Of a DNA stretch of 64,000 nt, positions 4,848-60,211 are shown piece by piece. The notes below the pieces were generated by a model, which had not been told where the DNA came from, did not search any database, and saw nothing but the letters and a program-made list of their open reading frames with translations. The stretch lies in the sequence record MK562502. The stretch is one strand, 5' to 3'. The DNA comes from Shigella phage KPS64. Numbering within the stretch: position 1 is the stretch's first letter; each line of letters opens with the position of its first letter. Both the position numbers and the translations under genes were made by a program.

Positions 4848-5747
4848 TTATTCAATATTTGCTACGGTCACTTGTGGGAAGTGGGAAAGACCACGGTCTT
4901 TTTCATCCCCGAGTGAGTTTGTAGTGTAGATATGGTCGATGCCATTGTCAAGAAGATTTTCAACACCTTTAGAGAAAATCCCATGAGTCACATACAGTTC
5001 TACACGTTCTGCTCCAGCTTCACGAAGATACTTTGCAGCCTCAATGAAGGTACGACCACCGTCACAGATATCATCCAGAATCATGACAGTCTTACCTGTT
5101 AAGTCTACATCATCAAGTATTCGCATACCAGTGATTTCACCAGTTTTCAGGTTTCGTACCTTAGCCATTGTAATGTAAGGTTTCTCAACCTCTTTAGCAG
5201 CCTCTTCAGTCTTCTTAGCTGCACCTGCATCTGGAGCCACTAAGTAATCAATGCGTGGGTCACTTGCAAAGTGGACTGCTGCCTCTTTTTGAGGGAGGTT
5301 GTAGAAGCTCTTAAACAAATTCTCTGCAACATTACTGTGAGTATCCAGAGCACATACTGCATCGAACTCCATAGCATTTACAAGATTTGCAAAGACTTTA
5401 AGTGCTGCTGCATCACCTTTAAACATGTGACGGTCATAGCGAGCATTTGGTAAGAATCCAAAGACAACAGTTTTCAGAGTTGCTTTCTGAGGAATCAAAC
5501 GGTCAATTGCTTCTTTAGCCATAGCCAATGCAAAGAGTGTGTCTTTGTCATAACCTTGTACAGTGAATATTACGTTTTCAATCTTACCAGCAGCATGTTC
5601 AGCAAAGTCTACTAAGTCTTCTGAGAAGTTACCACCAATCTCCCCAGAAGGGAACTGGATAATGTTGAAGGTCTCTTGATGAGAACCTTTGGAATTTGAA
5701 TTAAGTAGAACTCGAATAGTAGTTTTCATAATATCTCTCTCAGTCAA
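4848..5747 (-). CDS. ribose-phosphate pyrophosphokinase family protein (Prs-like; possible ADP-ribose pyrophosphokinase)
   Basis: 299-aa ORF; FPSGE, NARYDRH and ILDDICDGGRT segments match the Prs/PRTase type I fold. Confidence 0.7.
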   Translation of the reverse strand: MTERDIMKTTIRVLLNSNSKGSHQETFNIIQFPSGEIGGNFSEDLVDFAEHAAGKIENVIFTVQGYDKDTLFALAMAKEAIDRLIPQKATLKTVVFGFLPNARYDRHMFKGDAAALKVFANLVNAMEFDAVCALDTHSNVAENLFKSFYNLPQKEAAVHFASDPRIDYLVAPDAGAAKKTEEAAKEVEKPYITMAKVRNLKTGEITGMRILDDVDLTGKTVMILDDICDGGRTFIEAAKYLREAGAERVELYVTHGIFSKGVENLLDNGIDHIYTTNSLGDEKDRGLSHFPQVTVANIE

Positions 5748-7457: not shown

Positions 7458-7949
7458 CTATTCTGCTCTCCATTGACAGTCGCCTTGCCAGCCATATTCT
7501 TTTCTCCAAAGTATTTGATTGTCAGACCCACGATATGGTTTGTGTGTTGGTTTAGAAGCATCATACTTACCATCTATTACCACGTCAACATATTTCATCA
7601 CTTCTAAGTTAATTTTTTCATGTAGTTGGTAACCTGTCCATAACCAGATAGACTTGTCTGGGTATACGGTTTTAATCCGCTTACAGATATTTGTTACTGT
7701 CTGAACATTCCTATCATCAAGTGGTTCTCCACCAAGGATAGATAGACCACTGATTCCATCATCATTCATTATCTGCATAATGCCATAAAGGTTTGCATAA
7801 GTAAACTCTTTACCAGCATTAAACTTCCAAGATTCCTTGTTAAAACAACCTTCACAGTGATGTTTGCAGCCAGCTACAAAAAGACTGACACGAGCACCTT
7901 CACCGTTCGCTGTATCGAATTTTCGTATTTCCATGTAGTTCATTAGCAC
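7458..7949 (-). CDS. nrdG: anaerobic ribonucleotide reductase activating protein (radical SAM)
   Basis: 163-aa ORF with CxxxCxxC cluster (GCKHHCEGCFN) and GGEPL motif; directly downstream of nrdD. Confidence 0.8.
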   Translation of the reverse strand: MLMNYMEIRKFDTANGEGARVSLFVAGCKHHCEGCFNKESWKFNAGKEFTYANLYGIMQIMNDDGISGLSILGGEPLDDRNVQTVTNICKRIKTVYPDKSIWLWTGYQLHEKINLEVMKYVDVVIDGKYDASKPTHKPYRGSDNQILWRKEYGWQGDCQWRAE

Positions 7950-8335
7950 ACCTCAACTTCAAAACTTACATGTTTTGTGACGTACTCTTCACAATGCTCT
8001 TTAATAAATTCCTGAAGCAGTTCATCTTCCTGAGCACGAGTCATCAAAGCAACATACTTTGGATTCATTGTTTGCTGAATACTGTAGAAAGACATGTCAC
8101 CAATTTCTGTACCATATGAATCTGACCATGTTCCAGTTACTACTAAGACTTTATCACTCAACTCCGTAGGGAGTTCAATGTCATCATCCTTTGCGTCATC
8201 AATAACAGAGTCAGTTATTAAAAGAGTACATGCTATGTAAAACTCTGAGTATTTTCTGTGAGTTTTCTCACAAGAGCCACACTCTAAAGCATAGTCTTTA
8301 AGCCAGTTCATTTGATTTTTATTTAATTTAGTCAT
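7943..8335 (-). CDS. hypothetical protein
   Basis: 130-aa ORF with Cys-containing N-terminus; no motif. Confidence 0.4.
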   Translation of the reverse strand: MTKLNKNQMNWLKDYALECGSCEKTHRKYSEFYIACTLLITDSVIDDAKDDDIELPTELSDKVLVVTGTWSDSYGTEIGDMSFYSIQQTMNPKYVALMTRAQEDELLQEFIKEHCEEYVTKHVSFEVEVC

Positions 8336-8431
8336 TTCTCTTTCCTTTCAATGTGTTGTATAAAAGACCTAACAAGAAACCTAGTAAGACAGAGCCTACT
8401 AAGGTGACTAACAAGAATGTTTTAATCATCA

Positions 8432-8716
8432 TCAATACCACCATATTGTTTGGTTGTTATCACAAACATACAGGTACTCTGTCCCGATTTGTGGGACGAT
8501 GATTGTAGTGTTGCCTGATATGACTGTCATATAGTATAGGTAATTTCTACTCTGTGACGTTTGCTGACAATGGTTTGCAGTCATCCAAAGCTTAGTGTGG
8601 TAACTGTCATACACAGCAAAACCTATCAGAATTACTAATGCAATCCCAAGAAACCATAACCAAAATTTAGGCCAAAAATCATAGCTCATGCTGTGACCTC
8701 TTGATACACTTTCCAA
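8432..8716 (-). CDS. hypothetical membrane protein
   Basis: 94-aa ORF with one hydrophobic helix (FWLWFLGIALVILIGFAVY). Confidence 0.35.
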   Translation of the reverse strand: MESVSRGHSMSYDFWPKFWLWFLGIALVILIGFAVYDSYHTKLWMTANHCQQTSQSRNYLYYMTVISGNTTIIVPQIGTEYLYVCDNNQTIWWY

Positions 8717-8907
8717 ACGTTTTTTGTTAAGTCCTCGTCATACCATACCCCATTAGAACCTTGCCAAGACACAGTGTATTTATTTTCAGATACATGTTTG
8801 AGGACAGCCTCAAGTGTGCGATTAGACTTTCCTGCAACGAAAAGGTAAACCTTGCCAATTTTCAACATTTTATTATCTCCAATAAAAAGGTGATGTAAGC
8901 CTATCAA
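8686..8907 (-). CDS. hypothetical protein
   Basis: 73-aa ORF; start probably the internal MLKIGK. Confidence 0.3.
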   Translation of the reverse strand: MIGLHHLFIGDNKMLKIGKVYLFVAGKSNRTLEAVLKHVSENKYTVSWQGSNGVWYDEDLTKNVWKVYQEVTA

Positions 8908-8931
8908 GACCTACACCACCTTGTCAACTAC

Positions 8932-11076
8932 TTACATAGATTTTCTATCCTGAATTTCAGCAATTTTTGCATCATTCATTCTGGAAGTACCTTTAATCTT
9001 AGTCCAGCCAAGGTATCCACATACACGGTTAATCACAGAGATATCATGTGAGTTGCACTTAGGACACAATTCAACATCTGCACTTGGACGGTGACCGCAA
9101 TTCTCACAGATTGCCAAGTCAAAGTTAACACCTTGATAGAAACCTTTACCCATACCTCTTGTCACACAAGCCCTAATAGCTTTATGATTCTCTGGATTAG
9201 CAATACGAACGTACTGGATATGACCACCATTACAAGCATGGAAGAAAGGTTCTTCTAAGTCTTGCTTTTCAAATGGTGTAATATCTGCACCAACATTCAT
9301 GTGGAAGCTGTTTGTAAAGTATTCTTTATCAGATACACCTTTAACAACTCCAAACATGTTTCTAAACTGCTTCAATTGCGTACCACAAAGGCTCTCAGCA
9401 GGTGTACCATAGAGGGCATACAAGAAACCATCTTCCTGTTTAAACTGCTCCAGTTTGCCATTCAGGTAGTTTAAAACCTTACTTGCAATATCACCGTCTG
9501 ACTCATGTAATCTCTTACCTTGTGCAAGGACTGTCAACTCATCCAATGCAGTGACACCGAAAGAGGCTGTAAAAGACTTCACAGTATCCCAACCAATCTT
9601 GTCAGTTGGCTTCTTATGACCTTTATACAAACCACCTTGTGTGAATGCCAGAGGGTTAGAACTTGCTGGCATATTAGCAATCATCTCATAACGCTTTTTA
9701 TGGAAGCTTCTAATCATCTCAAGATACTTGTCAAGTTCTGTCCAGAAGTCTAAACCATTCTCTTCAGAATACTTGTAAATCATTGGCAGATTAAGAGATA
9801 CTGCACCGATATTTGCTCGCCCTGTGTAGAACTCTTTACCATCTTCATCATGATATGGAGATAAGAAAGCTCTGCAACCCATTGGAGAGATGACTGCACC
9901 TGAACGCTCAAAAGCTTCTGCAACAGAACCATGACCAGAAACACTTAAGAAGTCTGGGTACATAGCTTTAGAACAGCACTCAATAGCTTTGTCATAAAGA
10001 GTTCCCTGCCAAGGGTCTAACATGTGTCTTGTTTCATCATAGATGTAAACCAGTTTAGGGAATACAACAGGCTTCTTAGATTTACCTTGACCATTCATTC
10101 TCACATCAAGAATAGTCTTCGCAATCATAAATTGCAAGCGGTTATCTTCACTAGCCATATCTGGTTCGAGTAAACCAAATGTTAAGGTTGTGAATGCAAA
10201 GTCACCACGGCTGCAAGGAACTGTATTCAGTTTCATTTCCAGAGATTGGAAGCCTTGGGTTAGCTCAATCTGAAGTTGTTCTTTAGCATAGTGGTATGCA
10301 CCACCTCTCCCTGTGATATTATACTGCTTTGCTTTTTCCAGATGATACTCAAAAGACTTCTTAGCATATGGCACAAGAACCTTGTCAATCTCTGGGATAG
10401 TGAACCCACCAAACTGCTGTGCAGTTGCTGAGAGTACAACGTCACCAATAACCTGTAAAGCTGAAAGTACAGACTTTGGTTCACAGTATTCGATGCCGGA
10501 CATTTCAAAACCACCTTTCAAGACACTTCCAATGTCAAACAAGCAACAGTTAATACCACCGAAGATTAAATCTCTTAAGTCATGGATATAAATGAATCCA
10601 TCTTCAATAGCACTTGCTTCTTCTGGTGTCAAGTGATACTGCTTAAAGATTTCTTTTGTCAGATACCCACGGATGATTGAACCTTTTGTAGAGATTAAGC
10701 TACTGTCAAAGTTAGCATTCTCACGGTCACCTAAGAAGAGTGTGTCTTTAGTTTTCTGGTAAAGTTCATCCCAATTCTGTGCAACCTCTTTACGATAGTT
10801 TCTGTAGGTTGAATATGACTCATAGATTTCATGGTTTACCTCTGCCAGAGTTCCCTCTACAATACTGTGAACATCATCTACAGAGATGAGCATAGCATTC
10901 TGATTAGTTGCTCTGACAAGCAATCTCATAAAGGCTGATTCAAGAGCATGGATAACTTCTAGTGGTAACTCTTTGTAGCCAACTCTATTAGCTGACTTGG
11001 TAACTGCTTCGACGATTTTATTTACATTTGGTTTTTCCAGTGAACCGTCTTTCTTAATAATTTGTACTTTAACCAT
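8932..11076 (-). CDS. nrdD: anaerobic ribonucleoside-triphosphate reductase (class III)
   Basis: C-terminal glycyl-radical motif RVCGYLG and Cys cluster CENCGH...CPKCN; N-terminal ATP-cone. Start set at MVKVQ, preceded by AGGAG (track ORF begins 90 nt upstream). Confidence 0.9.
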   Translation of the reverse strand: MVKVQIIKKDGSLEKPNVNKIVEAVTKSANRVGYKELPLEVIHALESAFMRLLVRATNQNAMLISVDDVHSIVEGTLAEVNHEIYESYSTYRNYRKEVAQNWDELYQKTKDTLFLGDRENANFDSSLISTKGSIIRGYLTKEIFKQYHLTPEEASAIEDGFIYIHDLRDLIFGGINCCLFDIGSVLKGGFEMSGIEYCEPKSVLSALQVIGDVVLSATAQQFGGFTIPEIDKVLVPYAKKSFEYHLEKAKQYNITGRGGAYHYAKEQLQIELTQGFQSLEMKLNTVPCSRGDFAFTTLTFGLLEPDMASEDNRLQFMIAKTILDVRMNGQGKSKKPVVFPKLVYIYDETRHMLDPWQGTLYDKAIECCSKAMYPDFLSVSGHGSVAEAFERSGAVISPMGCRAFLSPYHDEDGKEFYTGRANIGAVSLNLPMIYKYSEENGLDFWTELDKYLEMIRSFHKKRYEMIANMPASSNPLAFTQGGLYKGHKKPTDKIGWDTVKSFTASFGVTALDELTVLAQGKRLHESDGDIASKVLNYLNGKLEQFKQEDGFLYALYGTPAESLCGTQLKQFRNMFGVVKGVSDKEYFTNSFHMNVGADITPFEKQDLEEPFFHACNGGHIQYVRIANPENHKAIRACVTRGMGKGFYQGVNFDLAICENCGHRPSADVELCPKCNSHDISVINRVCGYLGWTKIKGTSRMNDAKIAEIQDRKSM

Positions 11077-11091
11077 TCTGACTCCTAATGC

Positions 11092-11114
11092 AAAAAAGGT
11101 CTCCGAAGAGACCC
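11092..11114 (-). terminator. rho-independent terminator (minus strand)
   Basis: Hairpin GGGTCTC-TTCG-GAGACC followed by TTTTTT on the minus strand; same core as the 15214-15237 element. Confidence 0.55.
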
Positions 11115-11125
11115 TTATATTAATT

Positions 11126-11326
11126 CTACTTAGAAAACTTTTCAATAAGCTTTTTAAGCTTTCCACTCAAATCATGTTTGATATCTAATATCTCAAAGAT
11201 AACCCATACTAGCATAGCTCCAAATAGAGCACCTTGTTTTAAATCAGTAAACAGGCTAGTAACCATGAATGCCAGAGCAATCATCGGAGCATCTTCAACA
11301 AAACCATCCCATAAACGTTTAAGCAT
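11126..11326 (-). CDS. hypothetical small membrane protein
   Basis: 66-aa ORF with a hydrophobic segment. Confidence 0.35.
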   Translation of the reverse strand: MLKRLWDGFVEDAPMIALAFMVTSLFTDLKQGALFGAMLVWVIFEILDIKHDLSGKLKKLIEKFSK

Positions 11327-11561
11327 TATTCACCTCTGCCATAAAGTTCTGTAGTGTTCCAACAGGTTTCATTTCATTGTCTTCAACCTTCATAATGAAA
11401 GGCATCTGACGAACAGGTATCTTTGCAATATCCATCAGGTCACTTAGCTCATAATCTTTCCCAAGCATTCTAACAACATGGTCTAAGCCACGAGCCTGAG
11501 CAAAGTTCTTAGCAGTCACACACTGTGGGCATCCATCTTTTGAGTAAATTACATAAGTCAT
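11319..11561 (-). CDS. glutaredoxin/NrdH-like redoxin
   Basis: 80-aa ORF with CPQC active-site motif in a thioredoxin-fold context, between nrdB and nrdD. Confidence 0.7.
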   Translation of the reverse strand: MTYVIYSKDGCPQCVTAKNFAQARGLDHVVRMLGKDYELSDLMDIAKIPVRQMPFIMKVEDNEMKPVGTLQNFMAEVNNA

Positions 11562-12634
11562 TAAGGAACCTCTAAAAATCCTGAATTTAAATCATCAACA
11601 ACGGTATTCAAAAGGTACGCACCATTTTGTTGTTCTTGGTTAGCGTTTTGCTCTTTATCAATTTCCATCTTCTTAATCATATATTTCAAAGGTGGTTCTT
11701 TAGGAGCTACGAAGTCTCTTGGAATACCAAACATATCATACAATGGAGCAGCGTTGTAGTAAACCCATTCGTGAAGAAGTTTTGTATTCAAACCTACAAC
11801 AGCACGTCCTTCAGAGAAGATATAATAAGACCATTTCTCTTCACTTTCAACTACTTCATCCAGAATTACTTTAATCTCTGGTAGTACTTGACGGAAAGCT
11901 TCTTGCCACTCTTCATCTTTCAAAGTTTCTTTTAATGCTTCGATATCAATCTTTGTGTGAATGATTTCGTCAAGCATAATTTTCTGTACTGCTTGTGCAA
12001 TCCCTTGGAATTTATCTTGTGCATCAAGTGCAAAGGTACATGCAAAGGATGCCATGAAGGAAATACCCTCAAGTGCTGTTACTGCAAAGAGACCTTTCAA
12101 GATTACTTTGTGGAAGTGTAAAGGGTCTTTCTCCATTAGCTCTTGACGAACATAGCTTAAACGATAGTTAATACCTTCGTCAAGAAGTTCTGCCAGTGCT
12201 CTGTTCACAGTCTTCAATCTGTCCTGAACAGCAGCATTCTGGTTAATCTCATCAAGGATTGTTTCAGGGTTCTTGATACACTGACGAACAATCTCTGAAT
12301 AAGTTAGTGCATGAAGGTTCTCAATTTCTGATTGCTTCATGATAGCAGTTGCATAGATATCATCAGAGATGAACGGTGCAAATGCAAAAGCTAAACTCTT
12401 AGCAACCTGTGTATCTGCTTCCCATTGCCATTTCAGAATCTCAAGCATTACACCAGACATTGACTGAGGGACACTCTCAAAGTCTAACCGTGACTGTTCA
12501 AATGGGAACTCATCTTCAGACCAGTCTTGTGCTTTCTGCTGCTTATACAGTTCAAAGATTTTTGGATAGTGTTTATTCAGTGAATCGAAAGTTTTTCGTT
12601 CACCGCCTAAGAAAATTGGATGTGGGTTAATCAT
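11561..12634 (-). CDS. nrdB: ribonucleotide reductase class Ia beta subunit
   Basis: 357-aa ORF with ferritin-like di-iron helices; adjacent to nrdA. Confidence 0.85.
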   Translation of the reverse strand: MINPHPIFLGGERKTFDSLNKHYPKIFELYKQQKAQDWSEDEFPFEQSRLDFESVPQSMSGVMLEILKWQWEADTQVAKSLAFAFAPFISDDIYATAIMKQSEIENLHALTYSEIVRQCIKNPETILDEINQNAAVQDRLKTVNRALAELLDEGINYRLSYVRQELMEKDPLHFHKVILKGLFAVTALEGISFMASFACTFALDAQDKFQGIAQAVQKIMLDEIIHTKIDIEALKETLKDEEWQEAFRQVLPEIKVILDEVVESEEKWSYYIFSEGRAVVGLNTKLLHEWVYYNAAPLYDMFGIPRDFVAPKEPPLKYMIKKMEIDKEQNANQEQQNGAYLLNTVVDDLNSGFLEVP

Positions 12635-12906
12635 TCTGGTAAGATTCCTGTATCTAGAAAGTTTCTGGCTTCAGTTGTTGTCATAACAACCCATTTGTCC
12701 TTGTTGAACATATCAAGTGGTCTTGCATATGTTTGCTTTGGATTAAAACAATCAACATATCGTATATGTTCTTTCCAAGAACCATCTGGCATCTTAACTT
12801 TTAAGTCTAAGTCTGCAATATAATACAAAGACCGTCTTGGAATATAAAATAAATATAGTGAGTTATCTTTGCTACGTATTCTCGCATTGCGAATTAAATC
12901 TAGCAT
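12631..12906 (-). CDS. hypothetical protein between nrdA and nrdB
   Basis: Track ORF 12631..13017 trimmed to the Met preceded by GGAGAAAG, which removes overlap with nrdA. Confidence 0.4.
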   Translation of the reverse strand: MLDLIRNARIRSKDNSLYLFYIPRRSLYYIADLDLKVKMPDGSWKEHIRYVDCFNPKQTYARPLDMFNKDKWVVMTTTEARNFLDTGILPE

Positions 12907-12961
12907 ATCTTTCTCCAAGTTAATTTTAGAGGGTCTTTTACGACCCTCATAGTTATTAAAA

Positions 12962-15196
12962 CTAAACACCGCAACCTTCACAGTAGGCATCTTGTAGTGC
13001 TGATTTACCAACACCAATACGACTGTTAAGGTAGTACATAGTTTTCAAACCAACAAGGTTTGCATAAATCATGTACTTCAAAGCTTGCTCTAATGATACC
13101 TTCTTAGACTTCGAGTAGTCAACATAGAAATCTGAAGAGATAGCTTGACCAGTGAATTTTTGAACAATTGCATAGCAATCAATCATATCAAAGGTGTCAA
13201 TATCCCAAGCAATTTCGTATACATACTTCAACTCTTCATAATCAGGTACAATAAACAGAACGTTACCAGTTGCAGACTTCTTAGTTAAGATGAAGTCACG
13301 AATAGGGTACAGCCCGTTTGTCGTGTTAGTTGCCAGAGAAGAACTCTCATTAGGCATATAAGCCTCTAACACAGAGTTACGGATACCTCCATTTTCTTTA
13401 ATTCGATGTGACAGGTCATCCCAATCATAACGAAGTTTTGCATCGTGCTTTTCATCAATTTTCTTGTTAGCAGTCTTTGGTGGAACCCAACCATCAGGGT
13501 ACTTAGTGAACTGCATGTACTCTGGTACACCACGCTCTTTTGCGAGTCTTAAAGATGCTTCATGCAAGAAGTAAGAGTGCATCTCAGCCAACTCATGGAG
13601 TTTAGTTTTACCAGCCCTTGATGAGTAGTTCACATAGTTCTTCGCAAGGTAATGAGCCACATTAGTAAGGCCAATACCAACAGAACGGCGTTTCTGAACG
13701 TGGTTACGCATTGACGGATACGGATAATCCATAAGGTCAATAACGGAGTCAACCATTGCAAGAGCATAATAAGCAACGTCAGCGTATTCATCTTCTGTGA
13801 TTCTCCCTGCAACCAAACTAGCTAGGAAGCAAAGAGCAACTTCACCGTCTTCTTTCTTGGCTGTGTAGCTATACAGGTCTCTTTCATCCTCAAAACCGTG
13901 AACTGGTAAGACAATCTCCATACACAGGTTTGACATTTTCAAAGGTTCTTTGAAAGGTGTATGATAGTTTGCGTTGTTAGTAAAGAACGGGTAAACACGT
14001 CCTGTAGCATAACGTTGTTGAATAAACAACTTGGCAACTTCACGAGCCTTTACACGTTTATGTTTAACACCTGTATGAACTGCGTGACCTACTGCCATAG
14101 CAAATTCATCAGCACTTGCTGTGTAGAACATGTCATACAGTCTTGGTGCATCTTTGTAAGAGAATAGCAACCAATCTGTATCGTACTGTACACATTGCCA
14201 GAAGTAATCATTTGCACCAAATGAGTAATCCATTTCATTAATACGCTTTGCAGGAACCGTTGTAGGGTGCTTCAAGCGTAGCAAATCCTCAATCTGTGGG
14301 TCTAATGCAGTGAAGAAGTTATTAGCTGAACCGCCACGACTCTTCTGCTTATTAGCCTCTACAGCAGCACGTACAAGCTTATAATAAGGGAGTTTTCCCA
14401 TATGCTCAATAGTGTTTTGTCGGATTCCATCACCAATTGTTCTGGTCTCCATCAGCATACCAATACCTGCTTGCTTAGTGGTCATGTCATAAGCTACTTT
14501 TGTAGCAATTCCAAGAGACTCAGCAGTATCATTTGCTTTAATTAGGCAGCATGAAGCATAGCCAGATTTTGTAGCTCTCAGACCATTCAGATACGGTGTA
14601 GGAGCATTAATCTTCAGGTCAGATAGATATGTGTAGAGCTTGATAACATCATCTAAACGACGCTGTTTAGGCTGTCTTTCAAAGGCTTTCATAGCCATAC
14701 CCATGAACATAAACTGTGGAGACTCAAACAACTTACCACTTTTAATGTCACGGATTCCATACTTATCACGGAACTGCTTCAGTACTGCATACCCATAAGA
14801 GATATCTTTTGAATGTACGATGTGGCCTTGTAAGTAGTCAATCTCTTCAGGTGTGTAATCCATATGTTCCCAAAGCCCCATCTGCTCCATCTTCATCACA
14901 AATGGAAGTAACTGAGGAACCTTTGTAAATCCACCAAAAGCTTCTTTGTAGATAATGCCAAGAAGTAGTCTCCCAGCCATATCAGAGTACTCTTGAGTTT
15001 GCTTATCAATACAAACGTCAATCATAGCTTGGTGCATTTCTTTTGTTGTACAACCTTCATAGACACGCTTCATAGCTTCCATGACAACCTCTGACCAGAT
15101 AATTCCTCTCTTGTCAGCCCATGAAGCCCATTTATTTAAACGCTCTGGTTCGAATGGTACGATTGTACCGTCTGATTTGCGAATAGTAGTAATCAT
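12962..15196 (-). CDS. nrdA: ribonucleotide reductase class Ia alpha subunit
   Basis: 744-aa ORF with N-terminal ATP-cone, NLCMEI active-site segment and C-terminal Cys pair (CEGCGV). Confidence 0.9.
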   Translation of the reverse strand: MITTIRKSDGTIVPFEPERLNKWASWADKRGIIWSEVVMEAMKRVYEGCTTKEMHQAMIDVCIDKQTQEYSDMAGRLLLGIIYKEAFGGFTKVPQLLPFVMKMEQMGLWEHMDYTPEEIDYLQGHIVHSKDISYGYAVLKQFRDKYGIRDIKSGKLFESPQFMFMGMAMKAFERQPKQRRLDDVIKLYTYLSDLKINAPTPYLNGLRATKSGYASCCLIKANDTAESLGIATKVAYDMTTKQAGIGMLMETRTIGDGIRQNTIEHMGKLPYYKLVRAAVEANKQKSRGGSANNFFTALDPQIEDLLRLKHPTTVPAKRINEMDYSFGANDYFWQCVQYDTDWLLFSYKDAPRLYDMFYTASADEFAMAVGHAVHTGVKHKRVKAREVAKLFIQQRYATGRVYPFFTNNANYHTPFKEPLKMSNLCMEIVLPVHGFEDERDLYSYTAKKEDGEVALCFLASLVAGRITEDEYADVAYYALAMVDSVIDLMDYPYPSMRNHVQKRRSVGIGLTNVAHYLAKNYVNYSSRAGKTKLHELAEMHSYFLHEASLRLAKERGVPEYMQFTKYPDGWVPPKTANKKIDEKHDAKLRYDWDDLSHRIKENGGIRNSVLEAYMPNESSSLATNTTNGLYPIRDFILTKKSATGNVLFIVPDYEELKYVYEIAWDIDTFDMIDCYAIVQKFTGQAISSDFYVDYSKSKKVSLEQALKYMIYANLVGLKTMYYLNSRIGVGKSALQDAYCEGCGV

Positions 15197-24244: not shown

Positions 24245-26944
24245 ATGGACAATGTAGATTTCGAAAAATTACATTTGGTTGGTGATACAGAAACTGATGG
24301 GTTGCTCCTTGAGTTTACAAAAGCACACGTAATGGCTTTCGCAGACTATAAAGATGACAGTGACGAACCTGCTGTGTGGGTGTTCACTGATGAGCCTATT
24401 CTTGGTCACAAGTATACAAAATACATCAAAGGTGGTCTGCGTGAAGGTGTTGAGTTTGCACTGAAAGCTAAACGTCTTTGTATCCACAATGGTCTTGGTT
24501 ATGACTGGTGGGTGTTTAATCACATTGCACCTGACCTGTGGAACTTTGAGAATCCTAAGTGTAAACCTTGGAGTGACTTCTTTCAGGATTCACTTATCCA
24601 ATCTCGCGTACAGTGGATGGATAGACCTACGCCAAAAGGTTACAAAGGTGCTCATGGTTTGGCTGCATGGGGTGCTCGTGTAGGTGTCCGTAAACCAGAG
24701 ATTGAAGAGTGGGGTGTCTGGAATGCAGAGATTCTTACTCGTGTTGTAGAAGATATTAAGATTAACGCCAAAACTAAACGTGCTCTTGATAATGAGTACC
24801 TCAAGCTTAAGAAGTGTGGTGTTGACACTTATGAAACCTACATGCGAGCTAAAGAAACATCCTTCTGGATGAGTCAGCAAGCTATCAACGGTTGGAAAGC
24901 TGATGTAGAGCTTATGCAGTTCCACGTTAAAGAGCTTGACAAGTTAACTAATGAGTTGGCTGCTGAGGTTGAACCACACCTTCCACCAACTATTAAGACA
25001 AAAGGTAAAGTCACAGGTGAAGAATTTGCCAAGTCTTGGAATGAGTATGTAGATACATTTGGTCACGTTGACGGTTTAAAAAGGATTACCAAGTACCCTA
25101 AGACAAAGTATCGAGAACAGATGCGTGAAGGTGAGTTGAAGCAGTACCCTATCAAGCCATATGGTAAGCCAACCACAAAGATTTTTAATGTTGAGAAACG
25201 CAACTGCTACACCCCAACTAACACGGTAACTAAAGAAGAGTACCCTGAAGGTTTTGTAGCAATGAAAGATGCTCGTGCAGTTTGTAATGAACTGAATGAG
25301 AAGATTGGCAAGAAGTGTAAAGATTGGAAGCCAGTTAAGACTGTGAAAACTGTGAAGTACTACAACGTTCACGTTGTTAATCACTTTGAGTTAGAGTCTA
25401 GTCGCTACACTGGTTTGATTGATGCACCATTCACACCAATTGAGTTTGAAGTTTCACGAATGACTCAGGTAGCTGTGGTGAAGGATTACTTAAAATCCGT
25501 TGGCTGGATTCCTGATGATTGGAACTATAAAAAAGATTCTGATGGTCGTCCTATCAAGGTTTGCAGATTCAAAGACAACAAAAAGATGATTCGCAAACAT
25601 CCTAAGTGGGATGAGATGGTTGAGCGTTGTGGGTTGAACTATATTGAGCATGAAGGTGTCTATTACATCGAGCATAACTGGTCTGTTAAGAAGTACACAG
25701 ATGTGCTTGAGCCTTGCTTGATTAGGACTTCACCAAAGCTTACAGAGTCTTCTTATGATACAATCGAAGGTGAGCTTGGACAGAAGATTGCGAAGTACTA
25801 TACTTTGATGCACCGTCGCAGGACTATTGAGAACTCAAAGGATGATGAGAAAGGTTGGCTGAACCAGATTCGTCCAGATGGTCGTTTGAGTGCAGGTGCA
25901 ATGGTATTTGGTACTTCTACTGGACGTATGACTCAGTATGGTATTGTAAACGTACCTTCTGGTGCTGCCGTGTACGGTGAACCAATGAGGGCAGTGTGGA
26001 TTTGTGAAGAGGGAACCAACGTAGTATCTGTTGATATGAACTCTGCACAGCTTGTACTACTCTGTAACTTCATGGGTGATAAAGACTTCACCAAAGCGGT
26101 AACAGAGGGTAAAGAAGAGATTGAGTTTGTTCGTCAAGAGGATGGAAGATACTACTGCAAACACTTTGACCAGTATCTGAATCCAGAGATTGACAAGTAT
26201 CTGCGTTACGACTCTGAAAACGATTTGTACGTAGTTTACTCAGGTACTGATGCTCACACTCTGAACAGTATCTACTTCAGCCTTAATGATGAGCAAGATA
26301 TCTTGACTTGTCGTGCTACTCAGGATGAGAATCTTCTTCATGAGATTAGCAAGGGACGTAAGAAAGCTAAGAATGGTATCTATGCCCTGTTGTTCGGTGC
26401 AGGGGATGAGAAGTTTGCCAAGACAATTAAAGCAGCAACTACTCAGGAAGGTGCATTGACTAAGCAGACTTACTTTGTGCGTTTGCCGAAGATTAAGAAA
26501 CTGTTAGACAACTTGGAAGCTGATTTCAAAGCAACTAAGAAAGCACTTGAAGAGGTGTTTGGTAAAACTGCTGCAATCTCTAAAGGTGGTTTTGTGAAGG
26601 TTGCTGGGGCTTGGCTGTGGTGTAAGTCTCCACACAAACTCTTGAACTATTTGCTGATGGGTTCAGAAGCACAAGTTCAGAATGAAGCAATCAACCTTGC
26701 ATGTCGTAGAGCCTATGATGAAGGGTTGATGAAGCTGAATGGACGTAAGCCAGCTATTGGAGCTAGACTTCTTCTGGCATACCACGATGAAAATAGTTGG
26801 GAATGTCCAGAAAGTATGACTCAAGAGGTTAAAGCTATCACTGACTGGATGTACGGGCAGGCTTCTAAAAACCTTGGTCTAAGAAAAGAAACTATGGTTA
26901 CAGGTACTGGTAAGGTTGGTAAGAGCTGGTTGGAAGTGCATTGA
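24245..26944 (+). CDS. DNA polymerase, family A, with 3'-5' exonuclease domain
   Basis: 899-aa ORF; exo motif DTETDGL, pol motif A-like SVDMNSAQLVLL, motif B-like RKKAKNGIYALLFG, motif C-like AYHDE. Confidence 0.9.
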   Translation: MDNVDFEKLHLVGDTETDGLLLEFTKAHVMAFADYKDDSDEPAVWVFTDEPILGHKYTKYIKGGLREGVEFALKAKRLCIHNGLGYDWWVFNHIAPDLWNFENPKCKPWSDFFQDSLIQSRVQWMDRPTPKGYKGAHGLAAWGARVGVRKPEIEEWGVWNAEILTRVVEDIKINAKTKRALDNEYLKLKKCGVDTYETYMRAKETSFWMSQQAINGWKADVELMQFHVKELDKLTNELAAEVEPHLPPTIKTKGKVTGEEFAKSWNEYVDTFGHVDGLKRITKYPKTKYREQMREGELKQYPIKPYGKPTTKIFNVEKRNCYTPTNTVTKEEYPEGFVAMKDARAVCNELNEKIGKKCKDWKPVKTVKTVKYYNVHVVNHFELESSRYTGLIDAPFTPIEFEVSRMTQVAVVKDYLKSVGWIPDDWNYKKDSDGRPIKVCRFKDNKKMIRKHPKWDEMVERCGLNYIEHEGVYYIEHNWSVKKYTDVLEPCLIRTSPKLTESSYDTIEGELGQKIAKYYTLMHRRRTIENSKDDEKGWLNQIRPDGRLSAGAMVFGTSTGRMTQYGIVNVPSGAAVYGEPMRAVWICEEGTNVVSVDMNSAQLVLLCNFMGDKDFTKAVTEGKEEIEFVRQEDGRYYCKHFDQYLNPEIDKYLRYDSENDLYVVYSGTDAHTLNSIYFSLNDEQDILTCRATQDENLLHEISKGRKKAKNGIYALLFGAGDEKFAKTIKAATTQEGALTKQTYFVRLPKIKKLLDNLEADFKATKKALEEVFGKTAAISKGGFVKVAGAWLWCKSPHKLLNYLLMGSEAQVQNEAINLACRRAYDEGLMKLNGRKPAIGARLLLAYHDENSWECPESMTQEVKAITDWMYGQASKNLGLRKETMVTGTGKVGKSWLEVH

Positions 26945-26954
26945 TGGTGTTGAA

Positions 26955-27467
26955 ATGATTACAGAAATTCGTTTAAAGGAGCTTTTAGAGTACGACCCCG
27001 ATACAGGGGTCTTTACTTGGAAATTTAGAGAAGGTAATGCAAACTTTAACTCTAGATTTGGAGGTAAGAGGGCTGGAAACTATAGAACAAACACTGATGG
27101 TCACAAGTCTGTCCAATTGCTGATTGATGGAAGGAGTTACCAAGCAAATCGTTTAGTTATCTTGTATATGGATGGATACCTACCTGATAAAACCTTACAG
27201 GTTGACCACAAGAATTGTGATGGTTGGGATAATAGATATTTGAATTTGAGGGTTTGTACGGCTTCACAAAACTCTTGCAATCGGTCTAGAAAGTCCATAT
27301 CAGGTTTACCAAAAGGTGTACAGAAGATAGGGAAAAGGTTTAGGGCAGTGATTCGTTTACAAGGTAATAATTACCATCTTGGGATGTATGACACACCTGA
27401 AGAAGCCCACGAAGCTTACTGTGAAGCTGCTATAAAACTCCACGGAGATTTTGCAAAACTTAGTTGA
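26955..27467 (+). CDS. HNH homing endonuclease with AP2-type DNA-binding domain
   Basis: HNH core (VDHKNCDGWDNRYLNLRVCTASQN) and C-terminal AP2-like segment (YHLGMYDTPEEAHEAYCEAAIKLHGDFA). Start placed at the first in-frame ATG after the polymerase stop. Confidence 0.7.
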   Translation: MITEIRLKELLEYDPDTGVFTWKFREGNANFNSRFGGKRAGNYRTNTDGHKSVQLLIDGRSYQANRLVILYMDGYLPDKTLQVDHKNCDGWDNRYLNLRVCTASQNSCNRSRKSISGLPKGVQKIGKRFRAVIRLQGNNYHLGMYDTPEEAHEAYCEAAIKLHGDFAKLS

Positions 27468-27519: not shown

Positions 27520-27720
27520 ATGACTATTTCAGAAATTGAAGTTCAACTGCAATGTGCTGGATATTCTCAAAGTGAGATTGAGGCTATGTGCATCATCATT
27601 TGCAGTAGCCATAAGCACCTCAAGCTTTCTAATGAAAATCTTCGCAAGGTTGATATTTTTATTGCTGGAGGTAAGATTATCAAGGATAAGACAGGCTACC
27701 TTAAAGGTGAACATCTATGA
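27520..27720 (+). CDS. hypothetical protein
   Basis: 66-aa ORF preceded by TAGGAGA RBS. Confidence 0.45.
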   Translation: MTISEIEVQLQCAGYSQSEIEAMCIIICSSHKHLKLSNENLRKVDIFIAGGKIIKDKTGYLKGEHL

Positions 27721-27926
27721 GTCACCGTGGAAGAACTCATCTCGCCATGATGCAAGGTGCTTCAAAAGAGACTATCAAGAATCGGAAGAAAACTCTTTTT
27801 GACAGAATGAATAGACTCATTGATAATGCAAGCCTACCTAACTCTGAAAAGGTTTTCTTGAAAGGAAATATAAAGAGTATTGCACAGGAACTTATTGACA
27901 TTGAATTTTGGAGACACCAAAAATGA
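27717..27926 (+). CDS. hypothetical protein
   Basis: 69-aa ORF; ATGA start/stop overlap with the upstream gene. Confidence 0.45.
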   Translation: MSHRGRTHLAMMQGASKETIKNRKKTLFDRMNRLIDNASLPNSEKVFLKGNIKSIAQELIDIEFWRHQK

Positions 27927-28114
27927 CATACGAAGAAGCTCTTGAAGCTATGAAACAGGGCAAGAAAGTTCGAAATGAAAATTTCACATCTGATGAGTTC
28001 TTTGAAATGAAAGATGGAAAGGTTGTATGTGAAATGGGTTACCCAATGGCTGCATGGTACAAGGGGGAACCTTGGCAGAAAACTGGATGGAGTATCTTTA
28101 ATGAAACTCTATAG
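27923..28114 (+). CDS. DUF2829-like small protein (possible Tad2-type anti-Thoeris sponge)
   Basis: 63 aa from the ATG overlapping the upstream stop; MTYEEALEAMKQGKKVRNENF ... GEPWQKTGWSIF matches my recollection of the DUF2829 N-terminal motif. Confidence 0.45.
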   Translation: MTYEEALEAMKQGKKVRNENFTSDEFFEMKDGKVVCEMGYPMAAWYKGEPWQKTGWSIFNETL

Positions 28115-28233
28115 CATTTGGGGAAGAGTTGGTGAAGGTTATGACTGGACTCTTCTTAAAACAAATGTTAAAAGTAACGAGATAGCTTACTACAAAGTCT
28201 ATTACCATAAAACTTTTAGAGAGGTAGAGTATC

Positions 28234-28485
28234 GTGAGCAATAAAGAGCAAGAATCTTTATCAATTTTCAAGAATGAAGACAAATCAATAGCTTTTGTCT
28301 CAGAGGCTTGGTGCAGAGATTTGGGATATGATTGGTATCTTTTCTTATGCGCTAAGAAAGATGTTAAACCAGTTGATGAAACCCGATTCAAAGAACTGTA
28401 TAATATCTGCCAAGAGGGTTATGAAGAACATTACGAAGGTTCTTTGAATCCTGTAAATTCAAAAGCTTCAGACTTATTTTATTGA
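28234..28485 (+). CDS. hypothetical protein
   Basis: 83-aa ORF, GTG start with AGAGGTAGAG upstream. Confidence 0.4.
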   Translation: MSNKEQESLSIFKNEDKSIAFVSEAWCRDLGYDWYLFLCAKKDVKPVDETRFKELYNICQEGYEEHYEGSLNPVNSKASDLFY

Positions 28486-28495: not shown

Positions 28496-28741
28496 ATGTT
28501 AAAATTATTGATACCAGCTTTAGTAGTCTTACTGGTGGGGTGCAACCCTTCTTATGAGAATAAGGATGCCTCTTACAGACTTCCTCCAGAAATGCAAGAC
28601 TGCAAGATTTATAAGCTTAATGGTGATGCCATTAGCAGGGATGTTATTGTAGTTCGCTGCCCAAATTCTCAGACTACAACTTCTTACAAGTATGGGAAGA
28701 ATAGTCAGTCACACACCACAGTTTTTGATGGAGGATATTGA
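28496..28741 (+). CDS. putative lipoprotein
   Basis: Signal peptide with lipobox (MLKLLIPALVVLLVGC); RBS GAGAGG upstream. Confidence 0.5.
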   Translation: MLKLLIPALVVLLVGCNPSYENKDASYRLPPEMQDCKIYKLNGDAISRDVIVVRCPNSQTTTSYKYGKNSQSHTTVFDGGY

Positions 28742-28742: not shown

Positions 28743-28949
28743 ATGCAGGTTCTGGTAAATTTTATCTATAAGTATGACGTTGTTCACTCAACTACAACTG
28801 TAGCACAACGTAACCCAATAGTGCCACGAGAAGGTGAATGGGTAAGGATTGATGGTTGGACTTACACTGTAGAGAATATCATTCATAAGTTTGATGTTTG
28901 TGGAGACACACAAGTTATTGATGTAGAAATTGGTGGGAAACGTAAATGA
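28743..28949 (+). CDS. hypothetical protein
   Basis: Track ORF 28692..28949 trimmed to the Met preceded by GGAGG. Confidence 0.4.
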   Translation: MQVLVNFIYKYDVVHSTTTVAQRNPIVPREGEWVRIDGWTYTVENIIHKFDVCGDTQVIDVEIGGKRK

Positions 28950-30046
28950 CAATTCTGTACAAACAAAATAAAGATGGTTCTTTCAACGTCTGGTCATGTG
29001 TTGCTGTAGGTGATAAAGTCGTCACAACTTATGGTAAAGAAAATGGCAAGATGATGTTTGAAGAGTACACAGCAGAACCTAAGAACATCGGTAAAAAGAA
29101 TGAGCGTAATGCTGAACAGCAAGCTCTCTTTGAAGTTGCTGCTAAGTACAAGAGGCAGGTTGACCGTAAAGGATATGCTTACACAAAATCTGAAGCAGAG
29201 AATGTTGAGAAGGTTGGTGTACAGCTTGCTCAGGATGCTTCCAAGATAAGTCACAAGAAGTATCTGGTATTCCCTGCCGATGCTCAACCTAAACTTGATG
29301 GTGTTCGTTGCAGGATTTCAAGAGATGTTGACTCAGAAAGTTTTACGGCATATTCTCGTGAGAACACGGTATACAACATTCCTGTAGAGTTGATTCCTGA
29401 TGTTCTTCTTATGCTGAAACTGCACAAAGATGTTGAGGATTTCGACGGGGAGATTTATGCTCATGGTTGGGACTTGGAAGATATTGTATCTATGATTAAG
29501 AATGCTGACAATCCAGACCGTCACCTTCTTAAATTCTACTGGTATGATATCTGTGACAAGACTAAATCTTGGCCTGAGCGTCGTGAAGTTATTGATAATT
29601 CACCAATCGTTGAACTCGGTGATGCTTGCAGGGTTGTACCTGTTCAGACAATCCGTGTTAACTCTTGGGAAGAATTTGATAATGCTCATGACAACTGGGT
29701 TAAACTCAAGTTTGAAGGGGCAATGTATCGGTCAATCTCACCAGATTCGTTCTATGAGTGTGGTCATCGCTCTTACTTCCTGATTAAGCACAAGAAGATG
29801 CACACACAGGAATTTAAAGTAACTGGTGTAAAGACTGATAAACGTGGTCATGGTAAGTTCGTTGTAGAGACTCTTCCTAACGTCTTTGTAGATGTTTCAT
29901 GGAAAACTACACACGAGAAGAAAAAGTATCTTGCTGAACATCCTGAAGAGTTTATCGGGAAGCCTTTAACGGTTCAGTTCCAGAAGATGACTCGTAAGGG
30001 GTCTTTACAGTTCCCTGTTGGGCTTGTTATACGAGATTATGAATAG
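28946..30046 (+). CDS. ATP-dependent DNA ligase
   Basis: 366-aa ORF with adenylation motif I KLDGVRC, motif DFDGEIYA and FLIKHKK. Confidence 0.75.
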   Translation: MTILYKQNKDGSFNVWSCVAVGDKVVTTYGKENGKMMFEEYTAEPKNIGKKNERNAEQQALFEVAAKYKRQVDRKGYAYTKSEAENVEKVGVQLAQDASKISHKKYLVFPADAQPKLDGVRCRISRDVDSESFTAYSRENTVYNIPVELIPDVLLMLKLHKDVEDFDGEIYAHGWDLEDIVSMIKNADNPDRHLLKFYWYDICDKTKSWPERREVIDNSPIVELGDACRVVPVQTIRVNSWEEFDNAHDNWVKLKFEGAMYRSISPDSFYECGHRSYFLIKHKKMHTQEFKVTGVKTDKRGHGKFVVETLPNVFVDVSWKTTHEKKKYLAEHPEEFIGKPLTVQFQKMTRKGSLQFPVGLVIRDYE

Positions 30047-40296: not shown

Positions 40297-40596
40297 TTAG
40301 CTCCCTTTATATTCGTATGTGTAAAGGTTAGTCGTGCTAGTGGGTGCAGTTCCTGTTACTGTGTCAATTAATTCCCAACCATTGGAAACTAAATCAGGTT
40401 GCTCCATAGCAAATGAACGAACCTCTCCAACCGTACCATTTACTTTGTTAAGCAAATAGTTGATAATATAGTTAAACCACTGACGACCCATAGGCTCACC
40501 CCTTAATAGGCCAGTGGCTTGAATTTCTGGAGGTGGTAAAACTTTAAGCTGGTTACCATCAGCATCAACTGTATCTGTAGACCATGAAAGAGACAT
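40297..40596 (-). CDS. hypothetical tail-associated protein
   Basis: 99-aa ORF between fibre and baseplate genes. Confidence 0.35.
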
Positions 40597-41492
40597 TATG
40601 AACTTCCTTCTTGTTGAGATTTATCTTTTCTGCCTTTGACGATTTGGGCGACTTCTGCCATAATCCCATAATCACCACCTGCTACTGTTTCTTTACCAGC
40701 AATGAAATAGTCGTTGCTATTGTTTGTTTTGCTGACTTTTAAATAATCTTTACTGGTACTTCCACCAGTTTTATCCACTCTTACATAACCATCTCTTACA
40801 CCTGCATCTGCAAAACTACCTAATTTATTTGCTTCTAGAGAGCCACCTGTGTTGTTCGTAATAAGACCCTTGTTAGTGTTTGTTACAAACCAGTTATTGT
40901 TCTCATCAGTAATTGCCAGAGATGAATCGGCAACCTCTACAGGAGTCCAAGCAGTACCATTTAAGGTAACATCTCTAAGGATAACTGCTGAACCAATAGT
41001 TGTTGCAGCAATCTTAGAAAGTGTGTATGCTGTATCTAACACGTTATTACGAGTGTTTACACGGATAACAATTCCACCAGTCATTGGCGTAATGTGCTCA
41101 AAAATCTGACTGAATGATGCGTTGTAAAGGGTCATAACAGCCCTTTGTAAGAAGCTTGGTGTGGTGTCAGAACGTCTTAAGAAAATTTGAATGTAGAGGA
41201 TAGCTCTGTAAGTGTCATCATCAGCACCAATAGGTCTAGGGACTTTAATCAAAGCCCCGATGTTATCAAGTTGTGTGCCAACACCTACACGAATATTTCT
41301 TTCAGTATATAACTGATTACTGATATCCTCTAATAATTGTAACTCATCTGTGATAGATTTCAATAGACTCGTGTAAATAAACTTATCTTTGAATTGAGTT
41401 ACAGTTCTTTCGTCCAATGTTTTCTCATAAAAGTTTTCAATCTTTTTAAACATTGTTACTCCTTGGTAATTGTATACTGTGAGCTTTCCCAA
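40596..41492 (-). CDS. putative baseplate/tail protein
   Basis: 298-aa ORF; assignment by position only. Confidence 0.35.
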
Positions 41493-42925
41493 ACAGTGTA
41501 CTGGTCACCATCAATAGTGATTCTTGAGGTTGTGTACTGCCCCTCAGCAGGTGGAATTGCTTGGTTATTTGAAAGTGCAACCTTAATCTCATTAATCTCG
41601 ATACCTTGAATCACATCATAGATATGTCCATAGATTCTGTTAGGGATTACATCGTTACCAACTTTCAAAGTTCTACCGTAGGCATTAATACCTTGAACAA
41701 TTCTGTCATGAATATCCTGTTCAGGGATGTTAAGAGTTTCTTCATCATAAAGAGAGTAAGTAACCTTGACAAAAACGTATTTAGGCATTGGCCTACTAAA
41801 GTAAACGTCGTGAGGGAGAGAACCTAAGTCATATGCAGTCCCAAAGATTGAACCATATGGGCGAATACCAGCAGGTTTCGTGTCCCAGATTGCCTGTGCA
41901 ATATTATCATTCTGACCACCAACTACAACAATCTTAAAAGACTTCGGAGGAAGACCATCAGAGTTTGTTGTCTCAGTATCATTTTCTACACCAGAAGCAT
42001 CAGACACACCTTGAACTCTCTTGACAGCAGCTACAATAGCATCTAGAGTACCTACACCAGTAACAGCCAGAGATTCTAAGTAACGTTGTCTCAGTTCTGT
42101 GTCAGTTTCCTCATCACGACCTGTTGTCAAGTCATATCTGTTGAAAACACTATCGAGACCATCTACAGTTGTTTCAATCTCAATCAAGGTTCCTGCCAGA
42201 GTCTGGATGGCTCCAGTTTCATCTGCTACAACGTCACTAATTGAAGTAATCTTTGTAAATGTTAAGAATGTCGTTGCGGTAACAACCATAGGGTTAGTTC
42301 TGGCAATGATATCTCCAGTGTCTTTATAGATTCTCAGAACTGAACCATCATTAGTAACTTCAGCCTTTGCAATAATACCACCATTAATAGCATCTGCAAG
42401 TTTCTGTAGCAATGTTGTAATGGTATCAGAACTAGTCGGCTGATATGAATACTCAATGTTGTCAATGATAATAACATAGTTTGCATCTGTTCGTAAAGAG
42501 TTAACTTCTAAGTTTGCCTCTACACAGTAAGATGGAGTCAGTGTGAAAGTTGACACAGGGTAAAAGATATTACCTGCTGTGCTTCTTAATCTTGTAGTGG
42601 CTGGTACAGGAGCACCAGAATTACCAGTGAACTCAGCTTGGCCTCTTGTAGCCTGTGCCACATATCTGTATACAGCATTCAAAGCTGTTACATCATCTAA
42701 ACTGAATCCTTCAGCTTTGTCAATAGTACCACCGTCATAGATTTCTGACAAGATTTCATGAACGTCTGCAAGACCTCGGCAAACAGAAGCTAAGAATAAC
42801 CCAAGTTCGCTATCTTCAGAAACATCAAGGTTTGGTGAGATATCTCTATACAGACTTGCTTTAACATCATCCAAGATTTCTTGATATCTTTTTGTTTGTA
42901 AACCTGTAGTTGTTAATCCAGCCAT
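41456..42925 (-). CDS. putative baseplate wedge protein (J-like)
   Basis: 489-aa ORF; size and position in baseplate block. Confidence 0.4.
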
Positions 42926-60036: not shown

Positions 60037-60112
60037 TGGAGTATCGGAAGGGACTCGAACCCTCATAAGCCTGTTTTGCAGACAGGAACATAACCATTTC
60101 TGACACCGACAC
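60037..60112 (-). tRNA. tRNA-Cys (anticodon GCA)
   Basis: Hand-folded cloverleaf; anticodon loop CTGCAAA on a perfect 5-bp stem; T-loop TTCGAGT; 3' CCA encoded. Confidence 0.55.
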
Positions 60113-60118
60113 ATAATT

Positions 60119-60211
60119 TGGAGGAAGATACCAGACTTGAACTGGTACGCCGATTTCTCGGTTACTGGCAGTTTAGCAAACTGCTCCCTTACCTTTTAGG
60201 GTTAATCTTCC
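60119..60211 (-). tRNA. tRNA-Ser (anticodon GCT), type II
   Basis: 93 nt; perfect acceptor stem GGAAGAT/ATCTTCC; anticodon loop TTGCTAA; long variable arm with CCGA-GAAA-TCGG stem; 3' CCA encoded. Confidence 0.65.

Follow-up and report, generated by a model that had tools for sequence, protein, structure and literature searches.

A 63-residue protein of Shigella phage KPS64 represents a widespread insert-less family with the Tad2 fold

The window analysed here, a stretch of 64,000 nucleotides of Shigella phage DNA, encodes a 63-aa protein that adopts the fold of the Tad2 proteins. The protein is remotely homologous to Tad2 and belongs to a distinct and widespread family, and its gene is under purifying selection and present or absent among sister phages. 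We consider it very probable that the protein represents a separate, insert-less subfamily of the Tad2-fold superfamily. Our preferred explanation, to which we assign as a whole a probability of roughly 0.45, is that it acts as an insert-less oligomeric binder with a rebuilt pocket. According to this explanation, a real accessory gene would encode the smallest form of Tad2 (α1, β-sheet, short C-terminal helix and last strand), the β2-β3 insertion having been deleted from the scaffold. A small homo-oligomer would form a putative pocket at an α1-mediated interface, and this pocket would bind and sequester a host molecule in early infection as a counter-defence. Its chemistry would have changed from Trp, Asn, Ser, Thr, Asp and a basic loop to Phe, Tyr, Trp, two invariant Glu and an acidic loop.

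A short family with the Tad2 fold

An AlphaFold2 model of the protein based on a 72-sequence alignment reached a mean pLDDT of 93.2 and a pTM of 0.77. Its secondary structure as assigned by DSSP (H3-11, E16-18, E27-30, E33-36, H50-53, E56-58) follows the Tad2 organization, in which an N-terminal helix packs on an antiparallel β-sheet and is followed by a short helix and a last strand. An earlier sequence-only reading, which had likened the protein to the DUF2829 family, had named among others two checks of this assignment: comparison of a predicted structure with those of Tad2, and a Pfam HMM search. The outcome of the first is clear, as the top 14 matches obtained with Foldseek against the PDB were all Tad2 structures (SPO1, Spt and Mod), with query-normalised TM scores of 0.63-0.73 and probabilities up to 0.97, the next matches having TM scores of 0.33 or less. 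The E-values of the Tad2 matches were weak (0.2-1), as expected for 63 residues. When compared to predicted viral structures, the model matched short proteins named DUF2829 or Tad2-like in UniProt (E 4e-4 to 2e-3). Together these matches indicate that the whole protein forms a compact Tad2 fold.

The second check yielded a less straightforward answer. The Pfam profile PF11195 (Tad2-like, DUF2829) matched the 63-aa protein with 24.9 bits (E 3e-5), against a curated gathering cutoff of 25 bits, and over positions 1-40 of its 73 positions only. The same profile was matched at E<=0.01 by 27 of 99 members of the short family, and two tandem-repeat relatives exceeded the cutoff (30.1 and 42.6 bits); judging by these scores, the latter are sequence intermediates to PF11195. 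Among the matches listed, the precomputed PF11195 tag was carried by 0 of 89 short-family members versus 120 of 120 ModTad2 homologs. Profile-profile alignment with hhalign of the short family and 59 canonical Tad2 proteins gave a probability of 92.6% (E 4.5e-7) over 33 columns spanning α1-β1-L12-β2, which rose to 94.8% (E 4.9e-8, 59 columns) when the alignment was extended to the C-terminus (mact 0), α1 being the segment best conserved between the two groups. Alignment of the C-terminal halves alone was not significant (probability 1.6%, E 0.03), so that the residue map rests there on the collinearity of the folds and may be off by one or two residues. The DUF2829 assignment is hence supported by profile-profile homology and fold and borderline by Pfam score, and the protein is not a canonical Tad2 but part of a separate, insert-less family.

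Sequence searches of the PDB with the 63-aa protein or its close homologs reached no Tad2 chain. Matches of the protein and of a close-homolog profile to LIM-homeodomain fusions (23 residues, E 0.03-0.1) were discarded as spurious, because a pattern of zinc ligands is missing and the protein contains one Cys only. With a 99-sequence profile, Tad2 chains came on top at E 0.16-0.26 and over the N-terminus only, which is no evidence on its own.

A sensitive profile search of a library of 1.84 billion proteins recovered 158 cluster representatives of the short family, mostly of 59-70 aa, with the signature M-x-x-x-E-A-x-x-A-M-x-x-G-K-K-V-x-H-x-x-F-T-x-D-E...G-x-I-x-x-E-x-G-Y...F...W...G-W-S-I. The length of about 60 aa is kept across these diverged clusters, and the 63-aa protein scores 107 bits on the HMM of the short family versus 16.7 bits on that of canonical Tad2. 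On such sequence criteria, the proteins of about 60 aa are a coherent separate family and not truncated copies of Tad2. The family was detected by tblastn in 454 phage genomes, with Klebsiella (169), Escherichia (110), Salmonella (74), Citrobacter, Erwinia, Shigella and others as hosts; it spans several phage families and is widespread in lytic enterobacterial phages. Essentially all of its members are labelled hypothetical. PHROG 3474, matched by the 63-aa protein at 1e-33, is in the category 'unknown function', an NCBIfam search with the protein returned no match, and no mention of the family was found in the published literature searched.

The short-family member of the T5-like phage SH9 is encoded within a run of small hypothetical genes, that of the T4-like phage Merlin in the hypervariable nrdH-gene 55 block, and in phi92 the domain constitutes the N-terminus of the 183-aa gp217. 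Like phi92 gp217, other members are often fused to unrelated C-terminal extensions. A scan of the fusion partners of 25 longer members detected only weak Tad2-like Pfam matches and no Acb4 or Sequestin domains; in view of this lack of recognisable domains, the partners were rejected as a clue to function. Several of the metagenomic relatives P0183, P0211, P0199, P0200, P0225 and P0044 have short Cys/His-rich C-terminal tails (CxxC...C..H), and the tail of P0225 bears a SEC-C motif (PF02810). P0104, P0114, P0142 and P0160 are tandem duplications of the short-family domain, which, if modelled, could show how protomers pack.

The gene and its genomic neighbourhood

The window belongs to a Mooglevirus (Ounavirinae) that shares about 98% identity in this region with Shigella phages Sf17 and Sf18. 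The gene (Table 1) is translated into MTYEEALEAMKQGKKVRNENFTSDEFFEMKDGKVVCEMGYPMAAWYKGEPWQKTGWSIFNETL*, whose C-terminus reads GWSIFNETL. KPS64_gp39 of Shigella phage KPS64 is the identical protein, and orthologs are present in Sf18 (gp23) and Michonne (gp40), all three being annotated as 'hypothetical protein'. The annotation of Michonne places a ribosome-binding site at the position equivalent to the GGAG motif. The ATG of the gene (27923-27925) overlaps the TGA of the upstream open reading frame (ORF) at 27924-27926, an organization consistent with translational coupling between the two. Pairwise dN/dS values calculated for four orthologs range from 0.07 to 0.21, indicating that the ORF is a real gene under purifying selection. 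Several claims of the sequence-only reading are upheld here: the 63-aa ORF on the plus strand, confirmed by its translation, Shine-Dalgarno sequence, dN/dS and homologs; its ATGA overlap, which involves the 69-aa ORF; and its place in a run of small genes downstream of the DNA polymerase. A promoter and terminator scan returned 13 promoter-like sites versus a shuffled expectation of 9.9 ± 3.4, which is no excess; we therefore claim no promoter.

Table 1. Coordinates of the gene, its signals and the segments of its product, and correspondence with SPO1 Tad2 residues
Feature	Position	Strand	Remarks
Gene for the insert-less Tad2-fold protein, 63 aa	27923..28114	+	KPS64_gp39
Shine-Dalgarno sequence GGAG, 9 nt 5′ of ATG	27910..27913	+	Read from sequence
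ATGA start/stop overlap with upstream 69-aa ORF	27923..27926	+	Upstream ORF 27717-27926, PHROG 5180
47-aa ORF (ORF47)	28101..28244	+	PHROG 2381; 14-nt overlap with 3′ end of the 63-aa gene
Residues 3-11, helix α1 (EEALEAMKQ)	27929..27955	+	Region most similar to canonical Tad2; DSSP, hhalign
Residues 18-25 (NENFTSDE), β1-β2 'L12' loop	27974..27997	+	F21/T22 at the Tad2 W/N
Residues 30-32 (K-D-G), tight β2-β3 turn	28010..28018	+	Model, hhalign gap
Residues 37-46 (EMGYPMAAWY)	28031..28060	+	E37, G39, Y40 family-specific, conserved
Residues 47-59 (KGEPWQKTGWSIF)	28061..28099	+	Short helix and last strand
F21			SPO1 W25
T22			SPO1 N26
W45 (or Y46)			SPO1 W73
G48			SPO1 S76
E49			SPO1 T78
P50			SPO1 D79
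W56			SPO1 W85 (invariant C-terminal Trp)

A G5 homopolymer lies inside the gene at 28063-28067. Citrobacter phage BSwM KMM2 has G4 at this run, which shifts the reading frame into the downstream 47-aa ORF. The annotated 106-aa 'fusion' of that phage was accordingly rejected as a biological fusion, as it results from a 1-nt deletion in the G5 run, which reflects an error in sequencing or else a knock-out that arose naturally. Together with the very short length of the ORF, this frameshift is what could be invoked to regard the 63-aa ORF as non-functional, either a chance ORF or the decaying remnant of a full-length Tad2. We consider such an interpretation effectively refuted by the dN/dS values, by the Shine-Dalgarno sequence and ATGA coupling, by the conservation of a length of about 60 aa over 158 clusters and several phage families, and by the compact, confidently predicted fold.

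The gene is part of a run of small ORFs on the same strand located between the genes for DNA polymerase (24245-26944) and DNA ligase (28946-30046), and the gene order around it matches the annotated homologous region of Sf18. All its neighbours in the window correspond to PHROGs without assigned function. In phage Moogle, a sister species, the syntenic site contains neither the gene nor ORF47: gp38, the homolog of the upstream ORF, is followed directly by gp39, the homolog of an 83-aa ORF (28234-28485). This absence, along with the location of members in blocks of small hypothetical ORFs elsewhere, identifies the gene as accessory. Its genomic context is 'early/accessory', and nothing more specific. 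ORF47 is present in 242 phage genomes and, within Mooglevirus, is gained and lost together with the 63-aa gene. A functional link between the two was nevertheless rejected, because ORF47 is widespread in Felixounavirus without the 63-aa gene, is not adjacent to it in phage outra, and is missing from phiSUSP1, which has the 63-aa gene. In the Justusliebigvirus phage outra, the homolog of ORF47 forms the N-terminal domain of a larger protein (160 aa).

Other features of the region were also observed. A homing endonuclease with HNH_3 and AP2 domains (26916-27467, plus strand) has its start within the 3′ end of the gene for DNA polymerase. Sf18, in other respects 98% identical, lacks it, and homing endonucleases are found at the equivalent spot in Michonne and phiSUSP1; this location has the appearance of a hotspot for mobile insertions, immediately 5′ of the small-gene operon. 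The same operon includes an 81-aa ORF (28496-28741, plus strand; PHROG 902) starting with MLKLLIPALVVLLVGC, a signal peptide of the lipoprotein type that includes a lipobox Cys; its product could be a superinfection-exclusion or receptor-blocking lipoprotein. Farther away, the window contains baseplate genes (40596-42925) and, on the minus strand at 60037-63942, 20 tRNA genes including two for Gln, three for Leu, two for Ser, two for Arg and two for Lys; large tRNA arrays are typical of Felix-O1-like phages. Genes for both anaerobic and aerobic ribonucleotide reduction occupy 7458-15196 on the minus strand, namely NrdD (8932-11166) with an NrdG-like radical-SAM activase (7458-7949), and class I ribonucleotide reductase (12962-15196 and 11561-12634). 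In a 790-aa ORF at the edge of the window (1-2373, minus strand), a GHKL-type ATPase domain was detected (HATPase_c_3, 26.1 bits); such a domain is unusual for a phage protein of this size.

The putative pocket compared with known Tad2 sponges

The Tad2 fold is known to bind 3′cADPR, His-ADPR, N7-cADPR, cUMP/cCMP and cyclic dinucleotides. Its gcADPR/His-ADPR pocket is located between protomers, which meet along α1, the interface that creates the gcADPR pocket in Tad2 tetramers. Between β2 and the next core strand is a variable insertion (residues 36-59 in SPO1, 32-72 in HgmTad2; Li et al.) that contains α2 and contributes to the V/X-shaped dimer. HgmTad2/AcrIIA7 (PDB 8KBI) and SptTad2 (8WJD) are dual sponges for gcADPR and cyclic dinucleotides, the latter being accommodated in a pocket formed by the insertion (35-41 residues). 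ModTad2 (PDB 9EIB, 8V3E), a sponge for His-ADPR (type II Thoeris) and cUMP/cCMP (Pycsar), differs from the 63-aa protein by its 88 aa, by an extended insertion forming a second pocket, for cUMP, at the same intra-dimer interface, and by GWNGKG and S-x-S-D motifs that the 63-aa protein lacks. In the latter, the three-residue turn K30-D31-G32 replaces the insertion of 24-41 residues of canonical Tad2 proteins. The cyclic-dinucleotide and cUMP/cCMP pockets cannot exist in the 63-aa protein, since they are built from the missing insertion.

SPO1 Tad2 (Gp34.65; PDB 8SME/8SMF/8SMG and 8WJE), a gcADPR sponge against type I Thoeris, is likewise a small phage accessory protein. The two proteins have in common α1, the antiparallel sheet, the short C-terminal helix and the last strand (TMq 0.63-0.73), the α1-β1 sequence EAxxAhKxGkkV, and an aromatic residue at W25, to which the alignment would add one near W73 and, as Trp, one at W85. 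On the contrary, the 63-aa protein is shorter (SPO1 Tad2 has 89 aa), lacks the insertion with its α2, has an acidic instead of a basic L12 loop, exhibits replacements of N26, S76, T78 and D79, and has new invariant residues at E25 and E37. The ligand of SPO1 Tad2 is held by W25, N26, W73 and D79, to which I63, T65, D67, H71, S76 and T78 contribute. The L12 W-N pair, part of a G-W-N-G-K-G motif, is not found in the 63-aa protein, where F21/T22 are embedded in N-E-N-F-T-S-D-E, and neither is the S-x-T-D motif of the C-terminal helix, which aligns to G48/E49/P50. Across the short family, position 21 is Phe in 92 of 99 members and position 22 Thr in 53 of 99. W45, aligned with SPO1 W72/W73, is Trp in 30/99 members, and the adjacent position 46 is Phe, Tyr or Trp in 85/99. 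Of the C-terminal D-W of Tad2, the Trp is matched by W56 and the Asp is replaced by G55. As far as the alignment indicates, the aromatic gcADPR contacts are kept in kind and all polar contacts are lost in the 63-aa protein.

These observations bear on the possibility, which we regard as improbable, that the protein is a bona fide Tad2 sponge for Thoeris signals (3′cADPR/2′cADPR or His-ADPR) that would block ThsA activation and add to the NAD+ genes of the phage. The whole protein does have the Tad2 fold, and F21 and W45/Y46 would provide aromatics where W25 and W73 of Tad2 stack on the ligand, but the replacement of N26, S76, T78 and D79 by T22, G48, E49 and P50 affects positions whose mutation in HgmTad2 (W21A/N22A and S90A/T92A/D93A) led to a marked loss of gcADPR binding. 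The acidic L12 loop, the absence of the dimerisation insertion and the Pfam score below cutoff are also difficult to reconcile with such a function. At the gcADPR site, loss of function is predicted for no more than about 1% of Tad2 proteins.

A survey of 18 Tad2 homologs of 60-158 aa screened against seven systems (Hadary et al. 2025) provides a further point of comparison. None of these 18 proteins belongs to the short family (<=14.6 bits on the short-family HMM versus 107 for the 63-aa protein), which also counts against a Thoeris sponge, and motifs of the short family were not found in the part of the supplementary tables that was covered (Table S1 in part), a weak negative. T79 (80 aa, KWSKD loop) scores 14.0 bits on the canonical Tad2 HMM versus 16.7 for the 63-aa protein, and inhibits Thoeris of types I and IV; that so divergent a homolog still acts on Thoeris is in favour of a Thoeris sponge. 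T80 (73 aa, 20.4 bits), an insert-less protein of a different family with a similarly compact architecture, was the only insert-less mini-Tad2 in the screen and inhibited nothing where testable. Divergence alone thus neither proves nor excludes activity. Screened homologs such as T79 and T80 keep the L12 Trp and are without the H-x-x-F-T-x-D-E / E-x-G-Y signature. TadIV-1 of T4 was rejected as a counterpart, since its structure is described as unlike that of any known sponge.

The NAD+ genes of the window are two adjacent genes on the minus strand, at 2986-4803 and 4848-5747. The product of the former (605 aa; domains NAPRTase, PF04095, and NAMPT_N, PF18127) matches Namat, and that of the latter (299 aa; domains Pribosyl_synth, PF14572, and Pribosyltran, PF00156) matches Adps. 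By domain content, the two correspond exactly to the Pfam signature of NARP1, a pair of proteins for NAD+ reconstitution. NARP1, initially reported from phage Bas63, acts against defences that deplete NAD+; type I Thoeris is among these, whereas type II Thoeris is not countered. The presence of the pair shows that the phage lineage meets NAD+-depleting defences, which lends some support to a Thoeris sponge. The module nonetheless lies about 23 kb from the 63-aa gene on the opposite strand, and has no bearing on what the 63-aa protein binds. The sequence-only reading had proposed a Tad2-type sponge forming with the NAD+ module two layers of anti-Thoeris activity. The fold, the superfamily and the module itself were retrieved, but the first layer is undermined by the loss of the canonical gcADPR site (W-N and S-x-T-D) and of the insertion, and the module is distant and on the other strand.

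The short family has features of its own in these same segments. The mean charge of the L12 loop is −1.7 in the short family versus +1.6 in canonical Tad2, and that of the three pocket-equivalent segments together about −4.5 versus −1.2; pockets of known sponges are positively charged. The near-invariant H18 (79/99 members; N18 in the 63-aa protein), E25 (97/99) and E37 (95/99), as well as the conserved G39, Y40 and W51, are all without counterpart among the conserved positions of Tad2. The conserved positions cluster in L12 (18, 21, 25), after β3 (37, 39, 40, 46) and toward the C-terminus (51, 55, 56), and these three segments are the ones lining the Tad2 inter-protomer gcADPR/His-ADPR pocket. 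This coincidence and the status of α1 as the part best conserved with Tad2 make a homo-oligomeric, pocket-forming binder the most likely interpretation, in which the pocket at the α1-mediated interface may have been retained with a different chemistry. Alternatively, the conserved aromatics could simply pack the hydrophobic interior of this very small protein. Given the changed pocket chemistry, the ligand is probably not 3′cADPR/2′cADPR bound in the canonical manner. That the protein is a sponge-like binder of a non-canonical ligand is a tentative proposal to which we give somewhat less than even odds, the missing α2/β2 element of the V-shaped Tad2 dimer, the loss of all polar gcADPR contacts, the negative charge of the pocket-equivalent segments and the inactivity of T80 where testable being counted against it.

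The acidity of the family also leads to a different interpretation, in which the Tad2 scaffold would have been re-used, for example as a small acidic inhibitor of a host protein, of defence or housekeeping function, that acts through the surface H/N18-F21-E25-E37-Y40. This hypothesis is plausible, albeit still short of probable. Short-family proteins have a mean net charge of −4.0, with 89% of them negative, in agreement with the acidic pocket-equivalent surface, E25 and E37 are near-invariant without Tad2 counterpart, and C-terminal extensions without sponge-domain matches are frequent. The fusion partners, however, give no clue to such a function. AcrIIA7, first presented as an anti-CRISPR protein, is a DUF2829 protein, but later work identified it as a nucleotide sponge (HgmTad2). 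The conserved positions, moreover, coincide with Tad2 ligand-pocket segments, not with a new surface.

Possible significance for phage counter-defence

The short family is the smallest version of the Tad2 fold and occurs frequently in lytic enterobacterial phages of the therapeutic type. Should the 63-aa protein be a sponge, it would define the minimal architecture of such proteins, probably with a new ligand. If it is not a sponge, naming proteins with a 'Tad2-like domain' anti-Thoeris by name transfer is unsafe. In its most specific form, a candidate that we consider unlikely though not negligible, the short family would be a minimal and probably dimeric sponge of new specificity on the Tad2 scaffold. 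A pocket composed of H/N18, F21, E25, E37, Y40, F/Y46 and W51 would then capture an immune signal or metabolite bound by no known sponge, possibly cationic or metal-bridged. There is precedent for discoveries of this kind, as ModTad2 led to that of His-ADPR. Moreover, 19 of the 84 sponges tested by Hadary et al. inhibited none of seven systems, which may point to undiscovered signals. If the new specificity proves true, and given how common the family is in lytic phages of Klebsiella, E. coli, Salmonella and Shigella, the protein isolated from infected cells could lead to a signalling defence of Enterobacteria that has so far escaped notice.
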